A stretch of DNA of 64,000 nucleotides from Candidatus Oxydemutator sp. (GCA_965203445.1 OZ241883.1:2240001-2304000); one strand, 5' to 3'. Counted from the stretch's first letter, positions 14,455 through 51,632 are shown. Notes: generated by a model not told the origin, from the letters alone. A program made the numbers and translations.

Positions 14455-15234
14455 TCAACCGGTCACGCCGCGCGTGCTCGATTCGAGGAACTCTATCAGG
14501 ACTTTTACCTCGGGATGTTCGCGCGCGACTTCGAGGTGCCTGTCCAAATAACTACGCAGTCCGCCCGGCGTGCGCACCAGATCGAGATAAGCGTTGTGCA
14601 GCGCGCGGATTTTGTCGTCGGCGAAACCGGCGCGACGCAGCCCGACCTTGTTCAGGCCGTGGGTCCTGGCGGGGTTGCCCGAGGCCAGCGTGTACGGCGG
14701 CAGATCCTTCGAGAAGGCGCTGCCCTTGCCGCTGAACGCATAGGAGCCGACGCGGCAAAACTGGTGGATCAGGCTGAAGCCGCCGAGCGTCGCGTGGTCG
14801 CACACCTCGACGTGGCCGCCGAGCGACGCGCCGTTGGCGAAGATCACGTGGTCGCCGACGACACAGTCGTGGGCGACGTGCACGTAGGCCATCAACAGGT
14901 TGTCGTCGCCGACGACGGTCTTGCCAAGCGCCACGCCGGTGCCTCGGTGGAGCGTGCAGTATTCGCGGATGACGTTGCGCTCGCCGATGATCAGTTCGGT
15001 GCGCTCGCCGCGAAATTTCTTATCCTGCGGTTCCTCGCCGACCGAGGCGAACTGAAAAATGCGGTTGTCGCGGCCGATCGAGGTCGGCCCCTTGACGACG
15101 ACGTGGGGGCCTATGCGGGTGCCGGCGCCGATCACGACGCCGGCGCCGATGACGCTGTAGGCGCCGACCGAGACGTCGGGCGCAAGTTCGGCCGCGGCGT
15201 CCACTATCGCGGTCGAATGTACGTCGGCGCCCAC
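14455..15234 (-). CDS. lpxA: UDP-N-acetylglucosamine acyltransferase
   Basis: Hexapeptide repeats, PQDKKF, HRGT, HVAHDC. Confidence 0.96.
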   Translation of the reverse strand: MGADVHSTAIVDAAAELAPDVSVGAYSVIGAGVVIGAGTRIGPHVVVKGPTSIGRDNRIFQFASVGEEPQDKKFRGERTELIIGERNVIREYCTLHRGTGVALGKTVVGDDNLLMAYVHVAHDCVVGDHVIFANGASLGGHVEVCDHATLGGFSLIHQFCRVGSYAFSGKGSAFSKDLPPYTLASGNPARTHGLNKVGLRRAGFADDKIRALHNAYLDLVRTPGGLRSYLDRHLEVAREHPEVKVLIEFLESSTRGVTG

Positions 15235-38280: not shown

Positions 38281-38398
38281 GCCTGGCGGTGTCCTACTCT
38301 CACACGGGGAGGCCCCGCACTACCATCGGCGATGTGCCGTTTCACTTCCGAGTTCGGAATGGGATCGGGTGGTACCAGCACTCTATGGCCGCCAGGCA
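38281..38398 (-). rRNA. rrf: 5S rRNA, not linked to a 23S gene
   Basis: TGCCTGGCGGCCATAG...CCCATTCCGAACTCGGAAGTGAAAC...CGCCGATGGTAGT...GAGAGTAGG..CCGCCAGGC. Confidence 0.97.
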
Positions 38399-38572: not shown

Positions 38573-39109
38573 AACGGGATGTATGGGCTTGTCAAACCGA
38601 AGCACAAATGTCCTATTGTTTCCAAAGCGCAGATGTCCTGTTGTTGGCAGGGCTTAGCGCTTTCATGGTCTCCCCGCCAGCGTCTCCACGGGTGATCCGG
38701 CGCCGGTCTGTGGCCTGAACCGCAGCGCCGCCTGGTTGTCGCCTTATCCACTACAGATGGCAATTGTTTTGCGTCCACTGGCGCCGCCGGTGCCTCGCCC
38801 AGGCGATGCACCTAGTAGGCAGTTCGCGCGTGTTTCAGTTGTTGAGGGATTGGCTATACTGGTGATGCTACGGGAAAGCGATCGCCCTTCGATCCGAGGA
38901 GAAGTTTCAGTTGTTGAGGGACTGGCTATACTGGTGATGCTGCTATCTGCGGGCGCGCGGGCACGGGCAGATCGGGTTTCAGTTGTTGAGGGATTGGCTA
39001 TACTGGTGATGCGCCGCCGCGCGCGAGACCGACGCCGAGGATACCGCATGTTTCAGTTGTTGAGGGATTGGCTATACTGGTGATGCCGAGGGGTACGCGG
39101 GGTAGGCGC

Positions 39110-39137
39110 TTGCGGACGGGCAGGGTTGTGATACACT
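39110..39137 (+). promoter_or_regulatory. Putative sigma70 promoter inside the array insert
   Basis: TTGCGG-N16-TACACT with extended -10 TG. Confidence 0.5.
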
Positions 39138-39143
39138 TCGCCC

Positions 39144-39286
39144 GTCACTCTTTGGGATTGGTTATACTGGTTTGAGGGCGGTGACGCCATCTTCTGCGGG
39201 TGGCGGAACCGATGGCAGAAGATGTGCAAGCGTCAGGAGACCGTCCTCCTCCTGCAATTTAGTAGCCGCCCTCATTCCTTTTGTTT
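39144..39286 (+). ncRNA. Candidate structured small RNA with a degenerate half repeat
   Basis: GGGATTGGTTATACTGGT (17/18 to repeat nt 15-32); stems TGAGGGCGG/CCGCCCTCA, TGACGC/GCGTCA, CATCTTCTGC/GCAGAAGATG; T-rich end. Confidence 0.45.
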
Positions 39287-39604
39287 CGCCCTTTTTCTTT
39301 GGTACAGCAGAATCCCGACGCGGCGCCTGTCAATGTATTCCCACTTCGCGCGCAGCACGGTCACAAACACCGAGCCGTCCTCGTGCTCCTGCGCGACCCC
39401 GAGAATGGGACGCGCCTTGTCCTCGCCTCGGAACACCTTGATATAGTGCCTGCGGTATTCGCCTGGCCACGAATACCAGGCCAGCCACTCCTCGTCGGCA
39501 TCCTTCAGCGTCGGTAAATAGAAGTTTGCGTATCGCTCGCGCCAAGTGCGCCTCCCCTTTTTGCCGACGACGACGTGGGTTGCGCCCCCCCAGCCGAATC
39601 TCAC
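39272..39604 (-). CDS. PBECR2-like RNase toxin domain (phage MuF C-terminal type), standalone or a gene fragment
   Basis: H...K....RERYANFYLPTL...EEW....YRRHYIKVF...DRRRVGILLY; frame stays open to the repeat at 39636. Confidence 0.65.
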   Translation of the reverse strand: MRFGWGGATHVVVGKKGRRTWRERYANFYLPTLKDADEEWLAWYSWPGEYRRHYIKVFRGEDKARPILGVAQEHEDGSVFVTVLRAKWEYIDRRRVGILLYQRKRAKQKE

Positions 39605-42600
39605 GCCCCCGGCGGGCTCTCCCCGCGTTTTGATGGTTTCAGTTGTTGAGGGATTGGCTATACTGGTGATGCGGTCGGCGCCGGTGGCGAACCACCAGAA
39701 CTTGCGGTTTCAGTTGTTGAGGGATTGGCTATACTGGTGATGCCGAAATCCAGGGGCGCGTGCTCGCGCCCGACGACGGGTTTCAGTTGTTGAGGGATTG
39801 GCTATACTGGTGATGCAGAGGTTTCCTTTGCCGAGTTGGACAAGCGTTGGGGTTTCAGTTGTTGAGGGATTGGCTATACTGGTGATGCGCTTGTGCCAAC
39901 GCCTGCGCACGCGGCGCATTGATGTTTCAGTTGTTGAGGGATTGGCTATACTGGTGATGCCTTTTGCTCGACGCCCTGCAACATTTCCACGTTCGTTTCA
40001 GTTGTTGAGGGATTGGCTATACTGGTGATGCCGCAGCGCGCCGAAGTTCCGCAGCACCCACTCCACGTTTCAGTTGTTGAGGGATTGGCTATACTGGTGA
40101 TGCCCGGCGCCGGCAGCGCGAGCGGCGGCAGGTCAATCGTTTCAGTTGTTGAGGGATTGGCTATACTGGTGATGCCGACGACGCGCTCTACGACGCGGAG
40201 CTTCATGAGTTTCAGTTGTTGAGGGATTGGCTATACTGGTGATGCGATCGCGCAGATGCCGAAGGCCGACATCTATGGCGTTTCAGTTGTTGAGGGATTG
40301 GCTATACTGGTGATGCCGCAAGGTCAAGACTTCCGCGGCGCATAGCCGACGCCAGGCGCATAGCCGACACGGCTATACTGGTGATGCCGCAAGGTCAAGA
40401 CTTCCGCCCCAGGTTTGTGGATGTTTCAGTTGTTGAGGGATTGGCTATACTGGTGATGCTGTTTGGTGTTGTCGAGCGCGGTGGCAGAACTGGTGTTTCA
40501 GTTGTTGAGGGATTGGCTATACTGGTGATGCATACCCGCCCGGCCAATACCACTATATCCCCGGGTAGTTTCAGTTGTTGAGGGATTGGCTATACTGGTG
40601 ATGCGTCAAGTATGGGCGTTCGACGGCCTCCAGCCTATGTTTCAGTTGTTGAGGGATTGGCTATACTGGTGATGCACGGCGCAGGGGAAAACGCGCCTGA
40701 GGTTATGCCGTGTTTCAGTTGTTGAGGGATTGGCTATACTGGTGATGCGGCGCGCTGACTTTGTTCTTGGTCACCTTCGCGGTTTCAGTTGTTGAGGGAT
40801 TGGCTATACTGGTGATGCTCTCACAAACAGTCTGGCCGCGTTTCACATCCCAGTTTCAGTTGTTGAGGGATTGGCTATACTGGTGATGCCGCGTTGGCCG
40901 ACACCGCCGCGCGTGTGCTCGGCAGTTTCAGTTGTTGAGGGATTGGCTATACTGGTGATGCTGATGAAGGCGATTGTGGACATGAGGCCGGCGCCGTTTC
41001 AGTTGTTGAGGGATTGGCTATACTGGTGATGGCCGCGACTGGCGATCAATGCGTGGCGGGGAAGCCGCGTTTCAGTTGTTGAGGGATTGGCTATACTGGT
41101 GATGCTGGGTGTTCGCCAAATCGAAATACGCGGTCAACGCAGTTTCAGTTGTTGAGGGATTGGCTATACTGGTGATGCGAAGTGATCCGCAAGTTCCCCG
41201 CGCACATGACAAGTTTCAGTTGTTGAGGGATTGGCTATACTGGTGATGCCTCCAGCATGGCTTTCTGTTTCGAGTCCAGCCCGCGTTTCAGTTGTTGAGG
41301 GATTGGCTATACTGGTGATGCAGCTCTACACCTCCGTCGTGGCAAATAATGTCCGGAGTTTCAGTTGTTGAGGGATTGGCTATACTGGTGATGCTCCCGT
41401 GCGCGTTCCGCTGGTCGAAAAGAGGCGGCGTTTCAGTTGTTGAGGGATTGGCTATACTGGTGATGCTGTCGTACACGAGCGACGACGGCGACAAGTTTTA
41501 TCGTTTCAGTTGTTGAGGGATTGGCTATACTGGTGATGCATCCCGACTCGTCCGGCAGTCTTTGGGCTCAGGGGTTTCAGTTGTTGAGGGATTGGCTATA
41601 CTGGTGATGCTGCGCTCGGATGGCTGGCGGCGTCGAAGGTCTTGACGTTTCAGTTGTTGAGGGATTGGCTATACTGGTGATGCGCGGGAGGTGATGACGG
41701 CCCTTTCCGAAAACGTGTAGTTTCAGTTGTTGAGGGATTGGCTATACTGGTGATGCATAAAGCAAGGTGTTGATGAGACTATTAGTTTCGGGTTTCAGTT
41801 GTTGAGGGATTGGCTATACTGGTGATGCAATCTCGAAGTGGACATCGCCGACCTGCTGAACGAGCAGTTTCAGTTGTTGAGGGATTGGCTATACTGGTGA
41901 TGCCGTAGCCGCACAAAGATTAAACAGAAAATGGATGTTTCAGTTGTTGAGGGATTGGCTATACTGGTGATGCCGGCGCCGACCCCGCCCCCGGATCCCG
42001 TCCGCGACCGTTTCAGTTGTTGAGGGATTGGCTATACTGGTGATGCGCTGGACCTTCTGCACGAGGCGGCGGTCGGCGCAGGTTTCAGTTGTTGAGGGAT
42101 TGGCTATACTGGTGATGCGTGATGCGCGCTCTTGACCTCTTCTGCGGCGTCGGGTTTCAGTTGTTGAGGGATTGGCTATACTGGTGATGCTTAGAAGTGA
42201 AACAATTATGGTTCGAGGACGCCAGTTTCAGTTGTTGAGGGATTGGCTATACTGGTGATGCGGACGGCACGGCAATCAGAATAAAAGACGTACCGAGTTT
42301 CAGTTGTTGAGGGATTGGCTATACTGGTGATGCCGGTGATAGAGAGAATCAAGAGGGAGGAAAAGTGAGTTTCAGTTGTTGAGGGATTGGCTATACTGGT
42401 GATGCGGCACGTTTGCAGGCACGACCTTGTCGGCGGCACGTTTCAGTTGTTGAGGGATTGGCTATACTGGTGATGCGCGGCTACGCCGTTCGGCCAGGGC
42501 ACCAGGGTCTGTTTCAGTTGTTGAGGGATTGGCTATACTGGTGATGCCGGGGCCGCCGCCGACGTTCCCTTTGTCTCAACAAGTTTCAGTTGTTGAGGGA

Positions 42601-42694
42601 TTGGCTATACTGGTGATGCAGAAAGGCACGCAGAGTTCAGAGATGCTTATCGCAGTTTCAGTTGTTGAGGGATTGGCTATACTGGTGATGCCCC

Positions 42695-42727
42695 ATCCCA
42701 AGCCCTTGTTTTACAAGGGCTTGGGAT
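42695..42727. repeat. Perfect 15-bp inverted repeat right after the last CRISPR repeat (leader element or array terminator)
   Basis: ATCCCAAGCCCTTGT-TTT-ACAAGGGCTTGGGAT. Confidence 0.8.
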
Positions 42728-42784
42728 ATTTCACAGGGGGCAGAATTTTCGCAAGTAGAGCTATTGCACCAAAGCACGGCGAAT

Positions 42785-42812
42785 TTGCGAAAAGTAACGA
42801 TTGTGCTACGAT
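42785..42812 (+). promoter_or_regulatory. Promoter of tracrRNA-1
   Basis: TTGCGA-N16-TACGAT with extended -10 TG, just before the anti-repeat. Confidence 0.6.
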
Positions 42813-42818
42813 CATGAC

Positions 42819-42946
42819 TCCAGTATAGCCAATTCTTGATACTCTGTAATCATAAAAAAGTATCTTGAACGGACCTCTGCATTTTTGCACGTCTGCCTTC
42901 ACTCGATGAAGGATTAAGAAACCGCCTCCGGGCGGTTTCTTTTTTT
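42819..42946 (+). ncRNA. tracrRNA-1, Francisella II-B-type scaffold
   Basis: Anti-repeat CCAGTATAGCCAATTCTTGATACTCTG, then TAATCATAAAAAAGTATCTTGAACGGACCTCTG...CACGTCTG, close to the F. novicida tracrRNA as recalled. Confidence 0.9.
42916..42946 (+). terminator. Intrinsic terminator of tracrRNA-1, possibly also serving cas4
   Basis: AAGAAACCGCC-TCCG-GGCGGTTTCTT-TTTTT. Confidence 0.85.
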
Positions 42947-42953
42947 CCGACTC

Positions 42954-43547
42954 TCACAATCGGTCATTACAAAAATTCACGTATTCGCAGGTGCAGCACT
43001 GGGCGACCGTCGCACTCGATTCCGGCTTCAGTCCACGCCGCAGCATCCGCCTGATTTTATCCGCCACCTCTGCAACCAGCCGACGCTTGTCCGCGTCAAT
43101 GTCAATCGTATGCAGAACCTTCCCTTTCCCGACCAAGAATCCGGCCGTGCTCGGCTTGGAAAAATGCTCCTCTAACAGCAAGGCATAAGCCGCCAGTTGC
43201 AGTTGGTCGCCGCGCTTCCCGCGGTTTGCGGAAAGCTTGAACTCGACGGCGTACACCGCCTCGTCGGTTTCCACCGCCATGTCCGCGATGCCATGCAGTC
43301 CCAACGCATCGCTGCGCACCGCCAGATTGTGATGGGTTTTCCCGCTCCGCAAATTGAATCTGGAGAGATTGCGACGCTGCCATAATTTTTCCTCTGCCCG
43401 GTGGAAGTGCTCTCCCTGCCCGACCCAGACGGGGCGATGAAAAGCAACATCGGTCAACTCCATGTAATACACGACCCGCGGGCAGTAGCACCACTGCCGG
43501 ATTAAATTTACCGGAATGCTATATGGCAAGGGTTTCCTCCCAATCAT
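42954..43547 (-). CDS. cas4: CRISPR-associated Cas4
   Basis: RQWCYCPR, HGIAD, VEFK, QLAAYA, CCTCEYVNFC Fe-S cysteines. Confidence 0.95.
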   Translation of the reverse strand: MIGRKPLPYSIPVNLIRQWCYCPRVVYYMELTDVAFHRPVWVGQGEHFHRAEEKLWQRRNLSRFNLRSGKTHHNLAVRSDALGLHGIADMAVETDEAVYAVEFKLSANRGKRGDQLQLAAYALLLEEHFSKPSTAGFLVGKGKVLHTIDIDADKRRLVAEVADKIRRMLRRGLKPESSATVAQCCTCEYVNFCNDRL

Positions 43548-43821
43548 GGAAATCGCTCTTTTCGTGGCCGACAAAATAACTCCGCCCCCGCCCGTTGAAG
43601 TTGGTATGCGTAATAAATGCCTTGTCCGCCTGCCCCAGGCTATCGTGCAGGTAGCGTTTAATCGCCTCCAGCTCCGCCAGCGTCAGATACCCCCAAAACA
43701 CCGACTTCTGCACGGCTCTGAGCCCGTGCTTCCCCAACTCCATAAAAACGCGGGCGCGCGTTTTATTGTCTTCCACGTCGTAGCTGACCAGATACTCCTG
43801 CCGCAATGGATAATTCTTCAT
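43519..43821 (-). CDS. cas2: CRISPR-associated Cas2
   Basis: YLVSYDVEDNKTR, VQKSVFWG. Confidence 0.95.
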   Translation of the reverse strand: MKNYPLRQEYLVSYDVEDNKTRARVFMELGKHGLRAVQKSVFWGYLTLAELEAIKRYLHDSLGQADKAFITHTNFNGRGRSYFVGHEKSDFHDWEETLAI

Positions 43822-43830
43822 GCCGCCAAA

Positions 43831-44787
43831 TCACCACTTGAACAAATAAGGCCGATAGTTTTGCTCGCCGTAGAAATGACCGCACAAACGATAAACTTGG
43901 CGCTGGATAATATGTTCCAATTTGTGCTTCTTTCTGCGATACGTGTATTTCTTGGCGCACGTTTTCTGTATTTCCCCTATCAACGCCTTCTTCAGGGCGA
44001 CATCCAGAACCGTTCGCCCCTCGCTGCGGGAGCGCAACTTGACTACGGCGCGATCAACCACCCACGCGCGGTATTCTTCCATGACGTCGAGCACCAGCGC
44101 CATTTTCCCCGGCCGCCGGACGTGCATGACGCCGAGATAAGGCTCCAGCCCGGCGTTGATAATCGCGCTCAGGATATAACTGCTCAACACCGCGTAACCG
44201 AGATTGAGCATGGCGTTGTTGATTTCCCCGCTTCCCCGCCCCTCGCGCCTCGTGAACGAAGCCGAAAACAGCCGCGCTTGCCGCAAACCCTGAAAATAGG
44301 CATTGGCGCCGGCACCCTCGAAACCGAGCAAGGTCTCGAGGTCTCTCGCGTGTGGCGCCTTGTCCGCGTGTGCCCGCAATTCATCGGCGGCGGAGCGCAG
44401 AAACGGATGCCTGTGATATTTGTCGAGATGGTTCAGCACGGCGCGCTGATTTTTCAGTTTTGCGACGACGATCCTCCGCGCCAGCGGCATCGTGTCGCGC
44501 TGGCAAAAAGCCATCTGCGCCTGGCGCACCGCCACCACACCGTGTTGCGACTGTCCCAAAATCGCCGAGTGTGCGACACCGCGAAAATCCAAAAAAAATA
44601 ACTTGATGCCGCGGCTGCTGAAAGCCTCGATCAGATCGCTCGATATGCTGACGCCGCGTTTGGCGATGGAGACGGTGCACAGGCGATTGAGCGGATAGTG
44701 CCTGCTTTCTCCATCCTGCCTGACCACCAAGCGATGGCTGTTCAGCCCCAAAAAAGCCCCATAGTCGCCGATGACAAGGTGTTTCAT
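43831..44787 (-). CDS. cas1: CRISPR-associated Cas1, II-B type
   Basis: MKHLVIGDYGAFLGL...GIKLFFLDFRG, GFEGAGA..YF, NAMLNLGYAVL, GLEPYLGVMH, LDVMEEYR. Confidence 0.96.
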   Translation of the reverse strand: MKHLVIGDYGAFLGLNSHRLVVRQDGESRHYPLNRLCTVSIAKRGVSISSDLIEAFSSRGIKLFFLDFRGVAHSAILGQSQHGVVAVRQAQMAFCQRDTMPLARRIVVAKLKNQRAVLNHLDKYHRHPFLRSAADELRAHADKAPHARDLETLLGFEGAGANAYFQGLRQARLFSASFTRREGRGSGEINNAMLNLGYAVLSSYILSAIINAGLEPYLGVMHVRRPGKMALVLDVMEEYRAWVVDRAVVKLRSRSEGRTVLDVALKKALIGEIQKTCAKKYTYRRKKHKLEHIIQRQVYRLCGHFYGEQNYRPYLFKW

Positions 44788-44827
44788 GGTGTGATCGTGC
44801 CGGCCAGCCGCGGGCTTGGCCGCGTAC

Positions 44828-44862
44828 TTGACCTGGTCTATAGACCGGTATTATAGTCTATA
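44828..44862. promoter_or_regulatory. TA promoter/operator overlapping a possible divergent cas1 -10
   Basis: TTGACC, palindrome GGTCTATAGACC (44835-44846), TATAGT on +, TATAAT on - (44850-44855). Confidence 0.5.
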
Positions 44863-44880
44863 TAACACAGGGAGCAGGCC

Positions 44881-45123
44881 ATGACCAAAGAAAACATCGG
44901 ATCTTACGAGGCGAAAACGAAGCTGCCCGAACTGTTGAGGCGGGTGCAGGCGGGCGAGGCCTTTACGATAACCAGACGTGGCAAGCCCATAGCGGACCTG
45001 CTGCCCAGCCAGGCCGGGGCGCGACAAAAGACGGCGGCCGCCATTGACAACATCGCTGCCATGGGCAAACGGACGGTCTCCGAGCGTCGCCTGAAAGAAT
45101 ATAGAGACAAAGGCCGCGAGTGA
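44881..45123 (+). CDS. Phd/YefM family antitoxin
   Basis: IGSYEAKTKLPELLRRVQAGEAFTITRRGKPIADL. Confidence 0.92.
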   Translation: MTKENIGSYEAKTKLPELLRRVQAGEAFTITRRGKPIADLLPSQAGARQKTAAAIDNIAAMGKRTVSERRLKEYRDKGRE

Positions 45124-45545
45124 CGACCTTCGTGCTGGATAATTCAGTGGCAATGCGTTGGCTGCTCGCAACTCCCAGCCCTTCGGGGCAGAAGTATGCC
45201 GGGAAGGTCCTGCAAAGCATGAAAGACGCGGACGCGCTCGTGCCCGCGCTCTGGCACCTCGAAGCGGCCAATGTCCTGCTCCACGCCGAAAGAGACGGCC
45301 AGATAACGACCGGCCAGGCACAAGCGTTTGTCTCACAACTGAAAAATCTGCCCATTACGATTGATTCACCGACCCAGACAAATTCGGTCGACCGAATTAT
45401 GGCGCTGGCTCGGTCATACAACCTCAGCAGTTACGACGCCGCCTATCTGGAGATTGCCACCCGCAATTCGGTACGGCTCGCCACCCTGGACAGATCGCTG
45501 GCAAAAGCAGCGAGGAAAGCGGGAGTAGGTATCTATCTGAAATAA
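45120..45545 (+). CDS. vapC: VapC PIN-domain toxin
   Basis: FVLDNSV, WHLEAANVL, LSSYDAAYLE, LATLD; GTGA overlap with the antitoxin. Confidence 0.92.
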   Translation: MTTFVLDNSVAMRWLLATPSPSGQKYAGKVLQSMKDADALVPALWHLEAANVLLHAERDGQITTGQAQAFVSQLKNLPITIDSPTQTNSVDRIMALARSYNLSSYDAAYLEIATRNSVRLATLDRSLAKAARKAGVGIYLK

Positions 45546-45561
45546 GAAAGCACCAGTGTGC

Positions 45562-45828
45562 TCAAGTAGTCTTCGCCTTCAGCGGGAACCGCGCAGGATT
45601 TCGGATGATTTCTCTGCTCAGATCAACGTCTATCATCGGCCAGTAATAATGATCCGCAGATAATTGCTCCACTTTAAGGATCGCCTCAACGGGCTGCCCC
45701 TTGAACCAGGGAAAATCCTCGTAGGACAGAAATAACTCCTCATCATGTGCAAGCAGCCATATACCGTGGGTAGATATATGGGTAACTTCAACTTCTGAAG
45801 TAGTCTTTCCAGGCATTGATGAGTTCAT
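45562..45828 (-). CDS. DUF2442 family protein
   Basis: THISTHGIWLL...ELFLSYEDFPWF...WPMIDVDLS..P.RFPL; ATGA overlap with the cas9 stop. Confidence 0.85.
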   Translation of the reverse strand: MNSSMPGKTTSEVEVTHISTHGIWLLAHDEELFLSYEDFPWFKGQPVEAILKVEQLSADHYYWPMIDVDLSREIIRNPARFPLKAKTT

Positions 45829-48800
45829 TGTGATGGTTCTCTATAGATTTCCAATTCCTTATAACCTATCTCAGTTTCTTCCATCGTTTCATCATCCCTA
45901 AGTGTTGCTCGGGGACCCAGTTTGGTGATAGCCCACGGCCCACTTTTCCCATCAATACGAACCCTATCACCCCGTTTGAATATTTTGAGTATTTTATAAT
46001 TCACTGGAAGTTCTTTATCTATTTCATTTCTTTCATAAACTGGCTGAGACTTATCCTTCCAATAAAACTTATTCGTAATACGAACAGCATCTATTTTATC
46101 TTTTCCATCTTTATTATATTGAATAACCATAACTTTATCCCAAGAAACCGTCCGTCTAAAGTGATGCATGCCTTTTGTATTTTTATCTTTTCTTCGCCAC
46201 ATCTGTTGAACTCCCATGCCCCCTCGGACACCAGGACCCACCCTTACGCAACGAACTGACCGTGTATTCTTGGGGTGTAAAATATGCTCCTGGGGCAGCC
46301 TCAGAAAATAAGAATGCGTAATTGTTCTCTTATCACCGCTTCCATTTGTCATTTCTTTTTTTCTGTCATCCGGCATATCATCGATTTTTTCCCATGCTTT
46401 TTCCATTGCCATCCTGATAGGCTCGGACTGTATATTCCCGATATTCTTTTTTTGAATCTTCTCCAACGGTTTTCTTTGTGTAATCATGCCGTCCAAACAA
46501 CGCAAAGGTTCAGTATCCGTTTTGCTGCATTCGATCTTTCCTTCATTTCTCTTGTCTTCAACATACCAACCCGAAGATTTATCGGGAGCCAACAAATTCC
46601 CTCTGCCGTCTTCTCTTAGATTGATAAAAGCAGGGGCATTTTCCTTCCTTGCCTGCTTACGAACATCACTATTCAAGCGTTTGATCGCTTCCCAATCTAC
46701 ATTTGCTGCCAAGACCACAGCATCAAGGGCATGGTGGAACTCTCTGATGGGATCATCTTTCGCTGGCTCAACAATCACCTTAAACCTTTTCACGGCAATT
46801 TTGGTCTTTATCATAACTTTGATATTCGAGATCTCCCCCGTACTTTTGTCTACAACTTCCACATCGCACCATGGTACATATTTACCATTACCTCTTTTCC
46901 TGTAACACTTCTTCAGTGTCCCAACCAATTTATTACCCTTGACAGATAGCCAATCATTACCTGCTTCCTCATCATTCTTACGATATTTAAGCTTTACAGA
47001 AGCATTAGCACCTTCCAACAATTTACTTAGTTTTTTATCCTTTGAGAAAACATCTTCCAATAACAACTCTAATTCTTGATCAAGCTGTCCTTTTGTCTCA
47101 TAGAGAGTTTCATCTTTCTTTTTTCCACTCGTTTTGCCTTCCTTTACTACTTCAAGGACGAAGTTTTTATTGTTACAGTTCTCTAACCAAAACTGGTTTG
47201 TCCCTACTGCATTATCATCCGGAGTCCCGACAAGCATCACTTTCCCATTATTTTTGTCCGTTCGAATTTCCAGCCAGTCAGTTACCCCTTCATCATAGTC
47301 TTTACAGATAGAAACCTCCCCATCAAATAAATACTCATCCAACTTCAGCTTTGAAAGTTCATATTTGAATTCTTCACCTGCCTTTGTTTTGTATGGATTC
47401 CTAAATCGTATAGCCCGCTTCTGCCGATCCATAAACGGAAACCAGAACCGACGAAGATAAATTGAATCACCTGAACGTATTTTGTGAATCACCTCTGATG
47501 GCAAGTTAAATTCATCCATAAAAGCCTGTTTCAAGAGTTTCGCCCCGAACATGGTGTGCTGTGGGGCAGCAAGCATATCCTCAGGCAGTCTCCTGTCTGC
47601 CTCCAAACGGGATTGAATGAATTTGTGCTTCTCAGGATTATTATTCTCAATCAAAGAAAGGACATTCTTATCCAGAGGCTCCCTCCGGTTGTGCTTATCA
47701 ATATTGCAAATTGAATGACCGATTACTTTATTCCGGGCAATATTTCCCCCACCTTTTGATTTAGGGAACAGATGATCAATATGAGCGTCACTATGCAAAA
47801 ACTCACCACAAAATATGCAACGGCCACCTTGATCCGCCCTAAGCGTGGCCATATCCCCACCCGCCGACTGTTGATACTGTTTCGGCTTGAGCTTCTTCTT
47901 CAGCTTCTTACCTTCACTCTGAGCCAGAGCACTGATATCAAAACGCGCTGTCTCTATACCTACATGTTCAATAGGTATCGGCGAATTTCTGAGGTCTCGT
48001 ACCTCCTGCTCCTTCAACATCTTGCGCACAACAACAGTGATTTTTTCAACTTTCTGCCGTATTGAGGGTGGCGCGTCATCTTTCAATGTTAAAACACGCT
48101 CTTCATGAAGCCTCGCCCATGAATTGCCCTTGGTTTCATCGCGCTCCAAAAGGTTCAGTTTTTGTTCCAGGTGCTTAATACAAAAACCTGCTCTGCCGGG
48201 CTGTTCCCCACAAATAATATCCCTGAGAATATCTTTCTTGCCTCTCGCCTCGTTCTCTGCGGGGAGAACATAGCGATTTCCCCTACTGTTAGTAAAAAAT
48301 TGATTAATAGTTTCCTGATTTTTATTTTTGATAACTCCGTCTAGTTCTTTCACAAACTCCAAACTATTCATCAACTTCTGTATTTCACTCTCATCCAACT
48401 TGTCTTTATTCCCATTGGCACGCCTCACATTCATTTGACGCAACTCAATTTCAAACTGAAGTCTGCGAACGTCTTTCCTGCGCTTTTTAGGGAGATTAAG
48501 TCCGCAACGTGTTCCATCATCGTCAGTAGCTGCCGGGCATTTGCCCATGCTATTGCGGTTGTTGAATCTTTTCTTGCGATATTCACGATTGACTACCTTT
48601 GTTGCTGCCTTAATCCATCGCTTTTTTATTTCTGTAGGGGTAGTACCTGCTCTATGAGCGATTTCACTGGCCTTATTATGAACATCCGCCATTGATTGTT
48701 GCCAATCCTGTTTTATTTTGGCCATAGACAAGATCTGTCTGTTCTGATTGACTTTGCTTTTCTTCAAACCCTGGAAGGTTTCATCCAGGCAAATTTGAAA

Positions 48801-49790
48801 GCGATCCTGCTCCAAGCCACAGGCGACTTTCATCAGGTTTTCCAACCCGCTTAGCATTTCCTCACGATGGCGATTACGATGTGGACGATAAACTTTGCCT
48901 TCCTCAAAAAGCTTCTCACCTGTTTGTAGGCCAAGCATAGTCATAATGCGAGTAACAATTTCTTCTTCCTGAGGTATGGTACTTCCAGCCCCATAGACCA
49001 AACCAAGGCGTTCTTTGATCCAGCTCTTTATATCCTCTGGCACAGCATCTTGAAGTTTTATTTCCAGTGCCTCATAAACCACTTCCTGCCTGGCAAGCTC
49101 CTCCATGACTGAAGAATCTTTTTCGGCTTTTTTTCTGAGATCGTGAATCTCTTTAGCTTTCTCATAAAGCTCACCCAGGCAGCTCCGTTCCTCTTTTATT
49201 TTTATAAAGGAAACAGTTTTGTCAGAAAATTTTTGAGACTCACTATGCCTTGAACGCCTGTTGAATTCTTGTCTTGCGTTGTCTTGGGCTTGTTTGTATT
49301 CCTCGTCTGATTCATTCTTGTATTTCCTACGCCCTTTCTCGTTAAATTCCGCGGGCGCATTAAATTCCTGAAGAAGAATCCTGTCAACTTCTTTAACTAT
49401 TAGAGGGCATTTAGGAGATTTACCATCATCAGTTTTGACAACGAGCAATTCAAGCAAGCTCGCATAGTCCCATCCACGATAATGGGCTAGCGCATAAAGG
49501 CGGTTTCCAAGAGAAGCCTTATCTCTCTCAGTCTGTTTCTCCCCCGGTTTCGCATTTCTTGGCTCCAACCCCATGCCTTTAAGAAGCGCATAGAAGTCGC
49601 GTAGCCGCCTCGCCTTGGAAAGTTTCCGCCTGCGTTGTCCCCTGTTGACGCGACGTTTTTGGAGAGTATCCGATAGCGTAGTGCGATGTTTGAGAACTTT
49701 ATAATCCAGGACTTCATTACTTGAACTCAACAAGCCAACGCCTGTATATGCGTAACCGAAGTCAATCCCTAATCTGAAGGACTTATTCAT
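45825..49790 (-). CDS. cas9: Divergent Cas9, 1321 aa
   Basis: RuvC-I LGIDFG, Arg-rich bridge helix, RuvC-II GIETARF, HNH CIFCG..HIDHLFPKS..N..HSICN, RuvC-III HHALDAVVLA; start at MNKSF with AGGTGG RBS. Confidence 0.93.
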   Translation of the reverse strand: MNKSFRLGIDFGYAYTGVGLLSSSNEVLDYKVLKHRTTLSDTLQKRRVNRGQRRRKLSKARRLRDFYALLKGMGLEPRNAKPGEKQTERDKASLGNRLYALAHYRGWDYASLLELLVVKTDDGKSPKCPLIVKEVDRILLQEFNAPAEFNEKGRRKYKNESDEEYKQAQDNARQEFNRRSRHSESQKFSDKTVSFIKIKEERSCLGELYEKAKEIHDLRKKAEKDSSVMEELARQEVVYEALEIKLQDAVPEDIKSWIKERLGLVYGAGSTIPQEEEIVTRIMTMLGLQTGEKLFEEGKVYRPHRNRHREEMLSGLENLMKVACGLEQDRFQICLDETFQGLKKSKVNQNRQILSMAKIKQDWQQSMADVHNKASEIAHRAGTTPTEIKKRWIKAATKVVNREYRKKRFNNRNSMGKCPAATDDDGTRCGLNLPKKRRKDVRRLQFEIELRQMNVRRANGNKDKLDESEIQKLMNSLEFVKELDGVIKNKNQETINQFFTNSRGNRYVLPAENEARGKKDILRDIICGEQPGRAGFCIKHLEQKLNLLERDETKGNSWARLHEERVLTLKDDAPPSIRQKVEKITVVVRKMLKEQEVRDLRNSPIPIEHVGIETARFDISALAQSEGKKLKKKLKPKQYQQSAGGDMATLRADQGGRCIFCGEFLHSDAHIDHLFPKSKGGGNIARNKVIGHSICNIDKHNRREPLDKNVLSLIENNNPEKHKFIQSRLEADRRLPEDMLAAPQHTMFGAKLLKQAFMDEFNLPSEVIHKIRSGDSIYLRRFWFPFMDRQKRAIRFRNPYKTKAGEEFKYELSKLKLDEYLFDGEVSICKDYDEGVTDWLEIRTDKNNGKVMLVGTPDDNAVGTNQFWLENCNNKNFVLEVVKEGKTSGKKKDETLYETKGQLDQELELLLEDVFSKDKKLSKLLEGANASVKLKYRKNDEEAGNDWLSVKGNKLVGTLKKCYRKRGNGKYVPWCDVEVVDKSTGEISNIKVMIKTKIAVKRFKVIVEPAKDDPIREFHHALDAVVLAANVDWEAIKRLNSDVRKQARKENAPAFINLREDGRGNLLAPDKSSGWYVEDKRNEGKIECSKTDTEPLRCLDGMITQRKPLEKIQKKNIGNIQSEPIRMAMEKAWEKIDDMPDDRKKEMTNGSGDKRTITHSYFLRLPQEHILHPKNTRSVRCVRVGPGVRGGMGVQQMWRRKDKNTKGMHHFRRTVSWDKVMVIQYNKDGKDKIDAVRITNKFYWKDKSQPVYERNEIDKELPVNYKILKIFKRGDRVRIDGKSGPWAITKLGPRATLRDDETMEETEIGYKELEIYREPSQ

Positions 49791-49803
49791 AACCCACCTG
49801 AAT

Positions 49804-49939
49804 GTAAAACAATACCCTGCATAAAGCAGGGTATTGTAGATTTTGCTCGCCCTCAAGCGGTGACTTACTGAAAACAGAGCATCGCCTGCAAAAAACGATG
49901 GTGCCAGCAAGCACCTCGGACTTTTTTCAGTTGTTGAGG
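49804..49939 (-). ncRNA. tracrRNA-2 candidate, non-Francisella scaffold
   Basis: CCTCAACAACTGAAA is the perfect complement of repeat nt 2-16; hairpins GGTGC/GCACC, CATCG/CGATG, GCTTG/CGAGC; 12-bp terminal hairpin. Confidence 0.7.
49805..49837 (-). terminator. Terminator-like hairpin between tracrRNA-2 and cas9
   Basis: ACAATACCCTGC-TTTAT-GCAGGGTATTGT-TTTA. Confidence 0.7.
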
Positions 49940-49943
49940 CCTG

Positions 49944-49971
49944 ATTGTAACGACGAAGAAAAAACTGTCAA
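49944..49971 (-). promoter_or_regulatory. Near-consensus sigma70 promoter for tracrRNA-2/cas9
   Basis: TTGACA-N16-TACAAT; predicted start site falls within the anti-repeat. Confidence 0.75.
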
Positions 49972-49987
49972 GCCCTGATGTGTTGTT

Positions 49988-50638
49988 CTACATTGGCGTC
50001 GCAGGGGTTGCGAAGTCGTCGTCGTAGAAATAGTGTCCCTTCAGCCGTTTGACGTTGAAAATGAGTATTTCGCTATGGAACAGTATGCCGTCGAACACGT
50101 TCTTCGGGAGGCTGATTATCGAGCATATCTCGGGATAAGTGCCGTCTACAAACTTGATCCAGCGCCTCGATTGTTGCGTCTGGTTCAGGCGCAATCCGTA
50201 AGGGGTGAACAGCACAATCGGGATGCTTTTGCCGAACAGTTCTATCGCTTTTTGCAGCCACACTTCCGGCAGCAATGGCCTGCCACCATAATTTTCTACC
50301 AGATGCGCTTTCGTCTTCGGGTCAATGTTGAACGGGGGGTTCATTATCACGAGGCCAGGCTCCTTCAGCTCTCCCTTCTTTACCTTCAGATAATTCCTGA
50401 CCCGCGTCCTCGGAAAACCCTGCTTTTCTATATCAATGCCGACAACGTCAAACCCGTTCTCCTCGAAAGGCCGCAGCAACGAACCCTCGCCCACGCACGG
50501 GTCGAGCACCGGCTTCGACTTGTCAATGCGCTTGCCGACCAGTTCATACAGGAACCGGCTGACACCTTCCGGCGTCTGTATCGTGGATTTCTTTTGTCGG
50601 TTGTAAAAATTATTGCGATCAACTCTGTACATCGTCAT
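49988..50638 (-). CDS. Small orphan amino (N6A/N4C) DNA methyltransferase
   Basis: IQTP, VLDPCVGEGSLL, GIDI, IMNPPF; GGAGGAG RBS. Confidence 0.85.
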   Translation of the reverse strand: MTMYRVDRNNFYNRQKKSTIQTPEGVSRFLYELVGKRIDKSKPVLDPCVGEGSLLRPFEENGFDVVGIDIEKQGFPRTRVRNYLKVKKGELKEPGLVIMNPPFNIDPKTKAHLVENYGGRPLLPEVWLQKAIELFGKSIPIVLFTPYGLRLNQTQQSRRWIKFVDGTYPEICSIISLPKNVFDGILFHSEILIFNVKRLKGHYFYDDDFATPATPM

Positions 50639-51632
50639 CAACTCCTCCGATTGTATTCCTTCGCCCGCTCCCCCACAAACTCCGAATCGCCGCGATTCCG
50701 TGGCCGCCGTGATGTCGGCATTGTGCCAAATCTTCCGGGCCAAGGCCGCCCAATCCGTACACCGGCATCGGCGCGTCTTGCACCAGCGTCGCAAAAGCAT
50801 CCCATCCCAATCCGCGCGCGCCGGGGTGTCCCGGCGTCTCCCGCACCGGTCCCAGCACCGCGAAGTCGGCGTCGAGCGAGGCCGCCGTTTTCAGTTCGTC
50901 CGCGTTGTGGCACGAGGCGCCAAACCAACGGCCCGCGGCCACCGGGCGACGGCGGCAGCGTCGCAATGCGGCGGCGCTCAGGTGCACGCCGGCGGCACCG
51001 GCGCCCGGGTGCGCAAGCAATGCGGGGTCGCGGTCGTGCAGCAGGACGCGCGCATGAAAAGCAGCGGCATCAGTCGCCATGCGACGAGCCAGTTCCTCGT
51101 AATCGTCGTCGTCCAGGCGATTGTCCCTGAACACGGCGAGGCGCACGCCGCGTTCCAGCGCGCGGCGGAAGCATTGCAGAAAGCGCGCGGGGTGTTCGAC
51201 GTTCGGGGTGATCAGGTAGCGGTCGGGAAGCCTCAGCGCGTTGATCATGGCGCGGCTTGCGGGCGGAAAGTCCGGCGCGCGCAGGGCCTCGATTTTCGTC
51301 CAGCGCAAGTCGTTGTCGCCGGCCAGGCGCGGGGCGCCGTCGAAGTCGCGCACCGTGAACACGTGAAAACGCAGGCGGCGCTCCCGGTAGCGCCACGGAA
51401 ATTGAATCAGGGGTTCGGAATTGCGCGCGACGACGCCGGTTTCTTCCTTCAGTTCGCGGGCAAGCGCCCGCTCGGGGGATTCGCCCGGCTCGATCTTGCC
51501 GCCGGGAAACTCGCGCAGGCCGCCCTGATGAACTTCGGGACGGCGCACAGAGGTCAGAACGGAGTCGGCGCGTCGCACCAGGCCGATTGCGATGGAGATC
51601 ACGGGGAATGGATCGGAGTCGGGCAAGAACAA
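50619..51632 (-). CDS. mutT: MutT Nudix hydrolase fused to a thiamine-phosphate-synthase-like domain
   Basis: EFPGGKIEPGE..ALARELKEETG, FPPAS, ASCHNADEL, GPVRETPGH, YGLGG. Confidence 0.85.
   Translation of the reverse strand: MFLPDSDPFPVISIAIGLVRRADSVLTSVRRPEVHQGGLREFPGGKIEPGESPERALARELKEETGVVARNSEPLIQFPWRYRERRLRFHVFTVRDFDGAPRLAGDNDLRWTKIEALRAPDFPPASRAMINALRLPDRYLITPNVEHPARFLQCFRRALERGVRLAVFRDNRLDDDDYEELARRMATDAAAFHARVLLHDRDPALLAHPGAGAAGVHLSAAALRRCRRRPVAAGRWFGASCHNADELKTAASLDADFAVLGPVRETPGHPGARGLGWDAFATLVQDAPMPVYGLGGLGPEDLAQCRHHGGHGIAAIRSLWGSGRRNTIGGVDDDVQS

Follow-up and report, generated by a model that had tools for sequence, protein, structure and literature searches.

Cas9 proteins and their trans-activating CRISPR RNAs (tracrRNAs) normally co-evolve. 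In IscB systems, the guide-scaffold RNA lies directly upstream of the nuclease gene and is co-oriented with it. Compact Cas9d, the effector of type II-D, has been resolved by cryo-electron microscopy, and the available part of PMC11903963 describes a zinc site of C182, C187, C264 and H267 in the second recognition domain (REC2), facing stem 3 of the single guide RNA. In an engineered Cas9d reported in the same part of that source, residues 172-306 of SpyCas9 (REC2) were put between E102 and E103 with the aim of faster cleavage. The module cas1-cas2-cas4, taken alone, is also a hallmark of II-D in the 2025 classification, as far as the excerpt of PMC12669027 goes. Here a type II CRISPR-Cas locus is described from Candidatus Oxydemutator sp. 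(GCA_965203445.1 OZ241883.1:2240001-2304000); this whole stretch of 64,000 nt is called the window, and all positions are counted in it. The window contains one type II locus, whose minus-strand genes read from high to low coordinates as leader, cas9, DUF2442, cas1, cas2 and cas4, with promoter and leader upstream of cas9 at 49971-49793. This locus is II-B in everything but its effector, and among the known families compact type II-D Cas9d alone is detectably related to its 1321-aa Cas9.

Relatives and architecture of the effector

Pfam recognizes in the 1321-aa protein only an RRXRR-type N-terminus (residues 3-64) and an HNH domain; literal RRXRR motifs, whose enrichment is counted among the marks of II-D together with a high R/K and a low M content, number zero, and the composition is 8.3% R, 11.5% K and 2.3% M. 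Among the NCBIfam models only those of Cas9d (NF049971, 114.3 bits, cut-off 375) and IscB (NF040563, 60.6 bits, cut-off 175) respond, and no NCBIfam II-A/C or II-B Cas9 model and no PADLOC Cas9 model matches. NF049971 gives 105-132 bits for other members of the family to which the protein belongs, all well under the cut-off, and among five compact or archaeal-type Cas9d it scores three at 408-470 bits and two below the cut-off (151 and 290). A single-sequence search of the PDB returned six Cas9d entries (E ~1e-21 to 3e-19), colinear from RuvC-I to the C-terminal KRGDxV...KLG, and with the family profile six Cas9d structures reach E values from 5e-42 to 2e-36, the next matches being HNH-only with E of at least 1e-8.

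The predicted fold points in the same direction. AlphaFold (AF2) models were made of the two protein halves, with a mean predicted local distance difference test score (pLDDT) of 84 for the N-terminal half and 81 for the other. For both modelled halves Foldseek ranks Cas9d-type structures first. The top seven chains in VIA-align (Z 9.6-13.5) are six Cas9d-type entries and, in fifth place, YnpsCas9 (9k31), and the predicted wedge and protospacer-adjacent motif (PAM)-interacting region (WED-PI) is matched to residues 543-743 of Cas9d. The Foldseek and VIA matches listed include no FnCas9 chains, which is an absence from these lists and not a test.

The preliminary description had read this Cas9 as II-D/IscB-like, a view against which a full-length alignment to II-B Cas9 and a placement within II-B would have spoken. 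Neither is seen, and by hidden Markov model (HMM), PDB sequence and fold the nearest characterised relatives are type II-D Cas9d. TIGR03031, the Cas9/Csx12 profile, has no match anywhere in the genome at E<=10. BLASTP against the Cas9s of the eight complete II-B loci with TIGR03031 Cas9 that were used for comparison gives a best E of 0.57 and thus no significant similarity, and hhalign of the family profile against II-B aligns 34 HNH columns only, at 10% probability. It is therefore very improbable that the protein is a strongly divergent II-B Cas9 (Csx12) in an ordinary II-B system, an explanation that we regard as close to refuted. Its 1321 aa do fall within the II-B range of ~1300-1600 in a review table (PMC10734277, as excerpted), the rest of the locus is II-B, and a sister position to II-B is not rejected by the approximately unbiased (AU) test; but the eight II-B Cas9s, mutually 46-60% identical, align with it at noise level only, and the sequence, fold and zinc-site matches all go to Cas9d.

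The second cysteine of the HNH CxxC motif, C661, also argues against that explanation, as it is Cys in the family, in II-D and in IscB, but T, S or N in II-B and II-A/C. The CxxC-type HNH had been called typical of IscB and II-D, and this stands in so far as it is common to these two and found neither in II-B nor in II-A/C. The two motifs concerned, CIFC (residues 658-661, window 47808-47819) and HSIC (692-695, window 47706-47717), are present as described.

The catalytic motifs had been judged intact, and indeed D10, E613, D672, H673, N696, H1020 and D1023 are invariant in 17 of 17 full-length family members; the six RuvC and HNH catalytic residues D10, E613, H1020, D1023, H673 and N696 align across all groups of the tree described below. 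In the same 17 proteins C418, C429, C537, H540, C658, C661 and C695 are invariant as well, and H692 is at least 90% conserved. Four of these residues lie in two segments that had been proposed to form a CCCH zinc site, RFNNRNSMGKC...C (residues 408-429, window 48504-48569) and GRAGFCIKH (residues 532-540, window 48171-48197). Both segments exist, with the correction that the spacing in the first is C-x10-C and not C-x9-C. In a phmmer alignment the predicted ligands C418/C429/C537/H540 fall exactly on C182/C187/C264/H267, so that the putative site corresponds ligand for ligand to the Cas9d zinc site that is solved in the available part of PMC11903963. A resembling stretch occurs in five II-B Cas9s (L037-L041), where residues ~480-505 read PPYQ(D/N)NNNRRPP(K/R)CQS, similar to the RFNNR...C of Cas9d and of this family, and of the four aligned zinc positions three are occupied by Cys in II-B Cas9s, a hint of a related site there.

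The protein consists of a Cas9d core with a helical insertion of ~240 aa past the bridge helix and a beta-rich insertion of ~235 aa before RuvC-III. The core runs in the order RuvC-I, Arg-rich bridge helix, recognition lobe (REC) with the predicted CCCH site, RuvC-II, CxxC HNH, RuvC-III, WED and a KOW-like PI domain. The bounds of the first insertion follow from the phmmer alignment, in which Cas9d 102 pairs with residue 114 and Cas9d 120 with residue 356. The AF2 model of the N-terminal half predicts it as helical (mean pLDDT 84), and the whole helical REC region would comprise ~500 aa. For the second insertion VIA suggests a likeness to the Ig-like domains of GH107 fucoidanase and dystroglycan (Z 7.1-7.7); it is missing from a distant family member, the Cas9 of locus L065. 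Protein Atlas returned for this insertion only leads from the RuvC-III context (0.80-0.88), which lie under the trust level and were discarded. At the C-terminus, the FKRGDRVRIDG...WAITKLG segment that had been described as SH3-like is present (residues 1271-1292, window 45915-45980), and model residues 672-719 (protein 1271-1318) superpose on KOW domains with Z 7.4 and a root-mean-square deviation of 1.6 Å over 47-48 residues. The equivalents of the Cas9d PI residues R698 and K715, as named in the available parts of PMC11706934 and PMC11903963, are kept as R1273 and K1290.

Among 5.8 billion clustered proteins 24 relatives were found, all of them metagenomic, none named and none from NCBI or UniRef. 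HMMER over 1.84 billion representatives yields 27 clusters at E<=1e-30, followed by a gap down to compact Cas9d at 66-73 bits, and 18 of the 27 representatives have at least 1000 aa (1095-1359 aa). The Cas9 tree, built from 52 sequences over 724 columns, unites the 25 family rows in a group that is parted from II-D, II-B and II-A/C by a branch with a Shimodaira-Hasegawa-like approximate likelihood ratio (SH-aLRT) support of 94. By path length, compact II-D lies closest to the family, which is still a group apart; II-B has a branch of 4.0 substitutions per site, and the family is not nested in II-B. No large Cas9d-like clade and no II-B/II-D hybrid locus is described in the literature searched, where the supplementary lists belonging to PMC9755519 and PMC12669027 may hold large members. 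These large Cas9d relatives are an undescribed family that has no name in the databases searched.

Pattern searches of genome, metagenome and viral contigs recovered no other family locus apart from L065 in the genome contigs; family member P0003 carries the search patterns and was not recovered, so its contig lies outside the collections searched. The L065 Cas9 has 1100 aa, is 38% identical, and stands with an array of eight repeats of a different repeat type, with neither cas1/2/4 nor a II-B tracrRNA beside it. Both kinds of system can co-reside, because the L065 genome carries a complete II-B locus (L026) elsewhere. An orphan repeat with one mismatch is found in L065 at 14944-14981, 1.2 kb past the small array, and a gene for a cyclic-nucleotide-binding protein lies in between.

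The type II-B modules of the locus

The adaptation module had been assigned to II-B in the preliminary description, and by sequence cas1-cas2-cas4 are really of this kind. Compared with 10 II-B loci or fragments, Cas1 has an identity of 66-82%, and Cas2 and Cas4 are 57-81% and 59-74% identical to their counterparts in the eight II-B loci. The corresponding identities to the compact II-D locus L064 are 31% for Cas1 and 29% for Cas4, so that Cas1 does not go with the II-D Cas1 branch by which the excerpt of PMC12669027 delimits that subtype; the assignment of Cas1 was made by pairwise identity. The order of the genes and the place of the tracrRNA do not differ from those in bona fide II-B loci, with which the locus also shares the 37-nt repeat family.

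The tracrRNA itself is likewise of II-B type. The Rfam model FtrA ("Francisella sRNA A") matches it over the full model length with 41.4 bits, and its fold has a z of -4.38. A covariance model, R1, built from 23 other II-B tracrRNAs and excluding the one of this locus, scores it at 123.7 bits, its own training members at 100-127 bits, and finds nothing in the compact II-D locus L064. With a pattern made of two of the conserved tracrRNA blocks, 23 loci were found in species-representative genomes. The large open reading frames (ORFs) beside them match TIGR03031 in seven of seven cases tested (344-592 bits), these being cut-off fragments of which five exceed the 399.4-bit cut-off, and none of the ORFs in the 23 loci matches the profile of the new Cas9 family. 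What the preliminary description observed in the locus is confirmed and its interpretation supported. The finding is stronger than first stated, as the II-B nature of repeat and tracrRNA and a second anti-repeat upstream of cas9 had been overlooked.

Positions of these and the neighbouring features are collected in the following table.

Table: Features in and around the type II locus, in window coordinates
Feature	Position	Strand	Remarks
CRISPR array, 46 repeats x 37 nt, II-B repeat type	38832..42691	+	43 normal spacers of 33-38 nt
tracrRNA, typical II-B, with conserved blocks and terminator	42817..42942	+	14-nt perfect anti-repeat, repeat positions 18-31
cas4, II-B type	42954..43574	-	PADLOC Cas4_II 209 bits
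cas2, II-B type	43519..43821	-	PADLOC Cas2_II 91.5 bits
cas1, II-B type	43831..44787	-	PADLOC Cas1_II 400 bits
Phd/YefM antitoxin and PIN (VapC-like) toxin pair	44881..45545	+	opposite strand
DUF2442 gene, start overlapping the cas9 stop (ATGA)	45562..45828	-	third-codon-position GC 0.506
cas9, 1321-aa Cas9d-related large effector, intact RuvC-I/II/III and HNH	45825..49790	-	ATG start at 49790
C-terminal KOW/SH3-like part of the PAM-interacting domain	45837..45980	-	R1273 and K1290 align with Cas9d R698 and K715
Insertion 2, beta-rich and Ig/cadherin-like, residues ~784-1018, directly ahead of the RuvC-III HHALDA motif	46737..47441	-	
HNH core C658-x2-C661 ... D672-H673 ... H692-x2-C695-N696	47706..47819	-	
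REC2-like segment with putative zinc ligands C418, C429, C537, H540	48171..48569	-	aligned to Cas9d C182/C187/C264/H267
Insertion 1, residues ~115-355, all-helical enlargement of the REC lobe past the bridge helix	48726..49448	-	absent from 747-aa Cas9d
Candidate tracr-like RNA or cas9 leader	49793..49941	-	anti-repeat, A-run, hairpins, then cas9 ribosome-binding site
Second anti-repeat, a perfect 15-nt complement of repeat positions 2-16	49925..49939	-	
Sigma-70-like promoter TTGACA-16-TACAAT	49944..49971	-	11 of 12 matches, best in 42600-50100
ORF of 270 aa with weak N6-methyltransferase matches	49988-50800	-	Pfam E 8e-7; PADLOC mad2 E 1.5e-6

In the array, 44 of the 46 repeats are identical. 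After the fourth repeat it contains an insert of 549 nt (39087-39635), single-copy in the genome, which encodes a 110-aa ORF (39272-39604, minus strand) with a Pfam PBECR2 match (E 5e-12; phage Barnase/EndoU/ColicinE5-D/RelE-like nuclease), and at 40317-40422 there is a rearranged unit in which a truncated repeat (3' half only) is followed by a duplicate of the preceding spacer's start. The 43 normal spacers have longest matches of 13-21 nt in their own genome (E of at least 0.003), none of them full length. The whole array gave no match to 50,697 phage records, and two marginal matches to 72,556 plasmids (E 0.03 and 0.09) were treated as chance. A solitary 5S rRNA gene (38281-38396, minus strand) adjoins the far end of the array, with no 16S or 23S rRNA in the window.

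Elsewhere in the genome there is a second type II effector at 1463617-1466688 (minus strand), a 1049-aa open frame with 655 bits to TIGR01865, which groups in the tree with other TIGR01865 Cas9s, labelled II-A/C. Among the II-B loci used for comparison, L052 (5932-9427), from a genome of the same family, looks decayed, its cas1 being split into two ORFs and its tracrRNA scoring 31 bits on R1. The bona fide II-B locus L041 has at 1507-1543, ~720 nt upstream of cas9 and on the cas9 strand, an orphan repeat-like copy with exact matches of 17 nt and 10 nt to the two repeat ends. This copy may resemble the small CRISPR-associated RNA known from Francisella.

The upstream anti-repeat and the origin of the locus

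The strongest argument for a replacement of the effector is a comparison of Cas1 with Cas9. In 21 pairs of II-B loci, a Cas1 identity of 67-81% goes with a Cas9 identity of 46-60% over 1443-1650 columns, but between this locus and seven II-B loci Cas1 identities of 67-82% are accompanied by Cas9 identities of only 22-30% over 63-256 columns. As judged from these sequences, effector replacement is the likely cause, because the Cas9 is unlike II-B while Cas1, Cas2, Cas4, repeat and tracrRNA are II-B. The Cas9 family is absent from 40 of 40 relatives, where only HNH-level matches of ~28 bits occur, and an ordinary II-B Cas9 is found in three of 18 genomes of the same family and in none of three of the same genus. 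When compared with the II-B loci in three genomes of the same family, the flanks of the cassette are not syntenic.

The composition of the locus had been noted before, and cas9 is indeed AT-richer than cas1/2/4 and the host: its GC content is 0.424 and its GC content at third codon positions (GC3) 0.414, compared with 0.54-0.57 and 0.69-0.72 in cas1/cas2/cas4 and a genome GC of 0.636. The GC3 break is placed between the DUF2442 gene and the toxin-antitoxin pair. The DUF2442 gene is coupled translationally to cas9 by the ATGA overlap, has an intermediate GC3, and is absent beside the L065 family member. The Phd/PIN pair falls exactly at the boundary between cas1 and the low-GC cas9 cassette, and at the other end the N6-methyltransferase-like ORF lies directly upstream of the cas9 promoter with a host-like GC3 of 0.686. 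The sharp composition jump at 45550-45830 might also mark an assembly chimera of two organisms' type II loci. This is extremely improbable: one separately assembled 9619-nt Logan contig covers 42663-50600 with 0 differences and even depth, the stretches 43409-45601 and 49346-50600 are spanned by contigs from a further run, and the upstream anti-repeat fits the local repeat variant. Both runs may stem from the genome's own sample, which makes them a not fully independent check of the assembly.

Outside the array, the window contains only two exact repeat complements of at least 12 nt, the 14 nt of the II-B tracrRNA and the 15 nt at 49939-49925 upstream of cas9. If the plus strand of the array is the one read, as the II-B tracrRNA implies, the repeat positions complementary to the latter lie at the spacer-proximal end. 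The 2.38-Mb genome contains 46 copies of the 15-mer in the array and a single one upstream of cas9; the 15-mer matches the local repeat variant, because it is present in none of 64 other loci. The 149-nt leader that contains it, located behind the best promoter-like site of the region, folds with -55.1 kcal/mol (z -4.39) and contains a hairpin followed by U6 at 49915-49900 and a 12-bp hairpin at 49837-49809 just before the ribosome-binding site (RBS) of cas9. Upstream of its cas9, L065 has an 11-nt complement of its own, different repeat, and it has in common with this locus the box GGCTTGACA upstream of cas9 and the block TGAAAAAA(G/A)TCC(G/C)AGG in the cas9 leader. Among four correctly oriented II-B loci, none has such an upstream element within 200 nt of cas9. 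On this sequence evidence we rate the upstream RNA as more likely to be the partner of the 1321-aa Cas9 than the resident II-B tracrRNA.

The best explanation seems to us a composite locus that kept the II-B cas1-cas2-cas4, array and tracrRNA and in which cas9 was replaced by a Cas9d-related large effector with an anti-repeat leader, and we hold it with about as much confidence as doubt. The Csx12-type cas9 of a II-B locus would have been swapped for a cassette of ~4.4 kb (~45562-49975) made up of promoter, anti-repeat leader, the 1321-aa Cas9 and the DUF2442 gene. Cas1-Cas2-Cas4 would load spacers of ~35 nt into the array, which would be transcribed on the plus strand, and the spacer-proximal 15 nt of each repeat would then pair with the anti-repeat RNA from just upstream of cas9, the resident II-B tracrRNA being the less likely pairing partner. 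The resulting ribonucleoprotein might cut PAM-flanked DNA by RuvC and HNH. The sequences show to what the Cas9 is related, that its catalytic and zinc residues are intact, that the remaining modules are II-B, and that two stretches are complementary to the repeat; we infer a replacement event, the RNA that is used, and activity of the system.

Several points weigh against the composite locus with its own anti-repeat RNA. Composition is supporting evidence only and proves nothing alone, because the bona fide II-B locus L037 has a similar gap (GC3 of 0.42 in cas9 and 0.68 in cas1). The deep forks of the tree are unresolved, and the AU test, which used a reduced set of 28 of the 52 rows under LG+G4, does not reject a branch that parts the family together with II-B from the other groups (p 0.275), so that the family may be sister to II-B. 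Neither direct or inverted repeats of at least 9 nt flanking the cassette nor, by tblastn at E<=10, a II-B cas9 remnant in the window were found. No protospacer came from the own genome or the phage and plasmid records, and no PAM was inferred in consequence; IMG/VR was not scanned with single spacers. The covariation of the upstream anti-repeat comes from two loci, this one and L065, and the polarity of the L065 array is ambiguous, degenerate repeats at its cas9-distal end suggesting the opposite reading direction. Finally, the resident II-B tracrRNA is undecayed, with an intact terminator, which fits continued use and a recent swap alike.

This last point leads to a variant of the composite locus in which the Cas9d-like enzyme uses the resident II-B tracrRNA and the upstream 15-nt element belongs only to the cas9 mRNA leader, where it might, for example, pair with abundant repeat RNA to tune cas9 expression. 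We consider this variant unlikely. The tracrRNA is as near to the II-B consensus as any member, and the 12-bp hairpin ends ~10 nt before the cas9 RBS, so that transcription from the same promoter must continue into cas9; besides, the AU test does not separate the family from II-B, and the NNR...C motif and some of the cysteines aligned with the zinc ligands recur in II-B Cas9s. But outside the HNH the protein has no detectable similarity to II-B Cas9, the co-evolution of Cas9 and tracrRNA is the norm, and family member L065 lacks a II-B-type tracrRNA beside it and yet has this upstream element in a form adapted to its own repeat.

Less probable still is a recent, non-functional mosaic, in which the incoming cas9 cannot use the resident array, the locus is heading to decay, and the 15-nt match is a recombination scar from the repeat. 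The GC3 break suggests a recent arrival, the array has been damaged twice (by the PBECR2 insert and in the truncated, duplicated unit), and the genome has its separate TIGR01865-type Cas9. On the other hand, all genes are intact, nearly all repeats are identical, and the catalytic and zinc residues are all conserved; the L065 analogue, which differs in sequence and fits its own repeat, argues against a scar.

Going beyond the composite locus as such, we tentatively put forward, while leaning somewhat against it, that the system may be a natural inter-subtype chimera and a new subtype-level lineage, in which a large Cas9d-like nuclease with its own omega-RNA-like 5'-leader tracrRNA captured a II-B adaptation module and array and had its anti-repeat retuned so as to fit the local variant of the II-B repeat. 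If so, two tracrRNAs would compete for one pool of CRISPR RNAs, and Cas9 would have grown from a Cas9d-like core via REC and RuvC insertions with its RNA shortened.

Comparison with known systems

Cas9 subtypes have been defined on the premise that effector, guide RNA and adaptation genes move as a unit, and the locus breaks this rule in a testable manner by its mix of a II-D-like effector, II-B adaptation genes, repeat and tracrRNA, and a second candidate tracrRNA. It can be seen as a natural experiment on a Cas9 that changes its RNA partner. Length filters used in mining would have dropped the family, one preprint having kept 400-1000 aa only, according to its available part. The family may yield editors that combine a Cas9d-like fidelity with a short guide scaffold.

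With type II-B (Cas9/Csx12, TIGR03031, Francisella type) the locus shares the order cas1-cas2-cas4 at 57-82% protein identity, the 37-nt repeat family, and the position, strand and conserved blocks of the tracrRNA. In contrast, the effector is unrelated to that of II-B by BLAST, HMM and profile-profile comparison, and the II-B Cas9s are longer (1650-1728 aa as stop-to-stop frames) and have another residue in place of the second CxxC cysteine of the HNH.

IscB resembles the effector in the HNH CxxC, the RRXRR-type N-terminus and a weak HMM match (60.6 bits), and the candidate scaffold-like RNA, directly upstream of the nuclease gene and co-oriented with it, recalls IscB and its omega RNA. Unlike IscB, the protein has no PLMP motif, stays below the 175-bit cut-off, possesses a large REC lobe, and is accompanied by a CRISPR array and adaptation genes.

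The engineered Cas9d with its REC insertion is similar in that the natural helical insertion starts at the aligned site (Cas9d 102 corresponding to residue 114), and different in that the insertion of the family is natural and ~240 aa long; the family may thus show evolution's version of the same idea.

Closest are the type II-D Cas9d proteins (Cas9d-MG34-1, 747 aa, 8zq9/9auf/8w2z; NsCas9d, 9lgi; NbaCas9, 9k32), which give the best sequence and fold matches, have a colinear domain order and one-to-one counterparts of the putative zinc ligands, and whose R698 and K715 have kept equivalents. The effector differs from them by its length of 1321 aa, compared with 600-1050 aa for II-D in the available parts of PMC9755519 and PMC11706934, by its two insertions of ~240 aa each, by an NF049971 score of 114 bits that lies below 375, and by forming a group of its own in the tree. 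In the compact II-D locus L064 the anti-repeat lies between cas9 and the array, whereas here it is found upstream of cas9.

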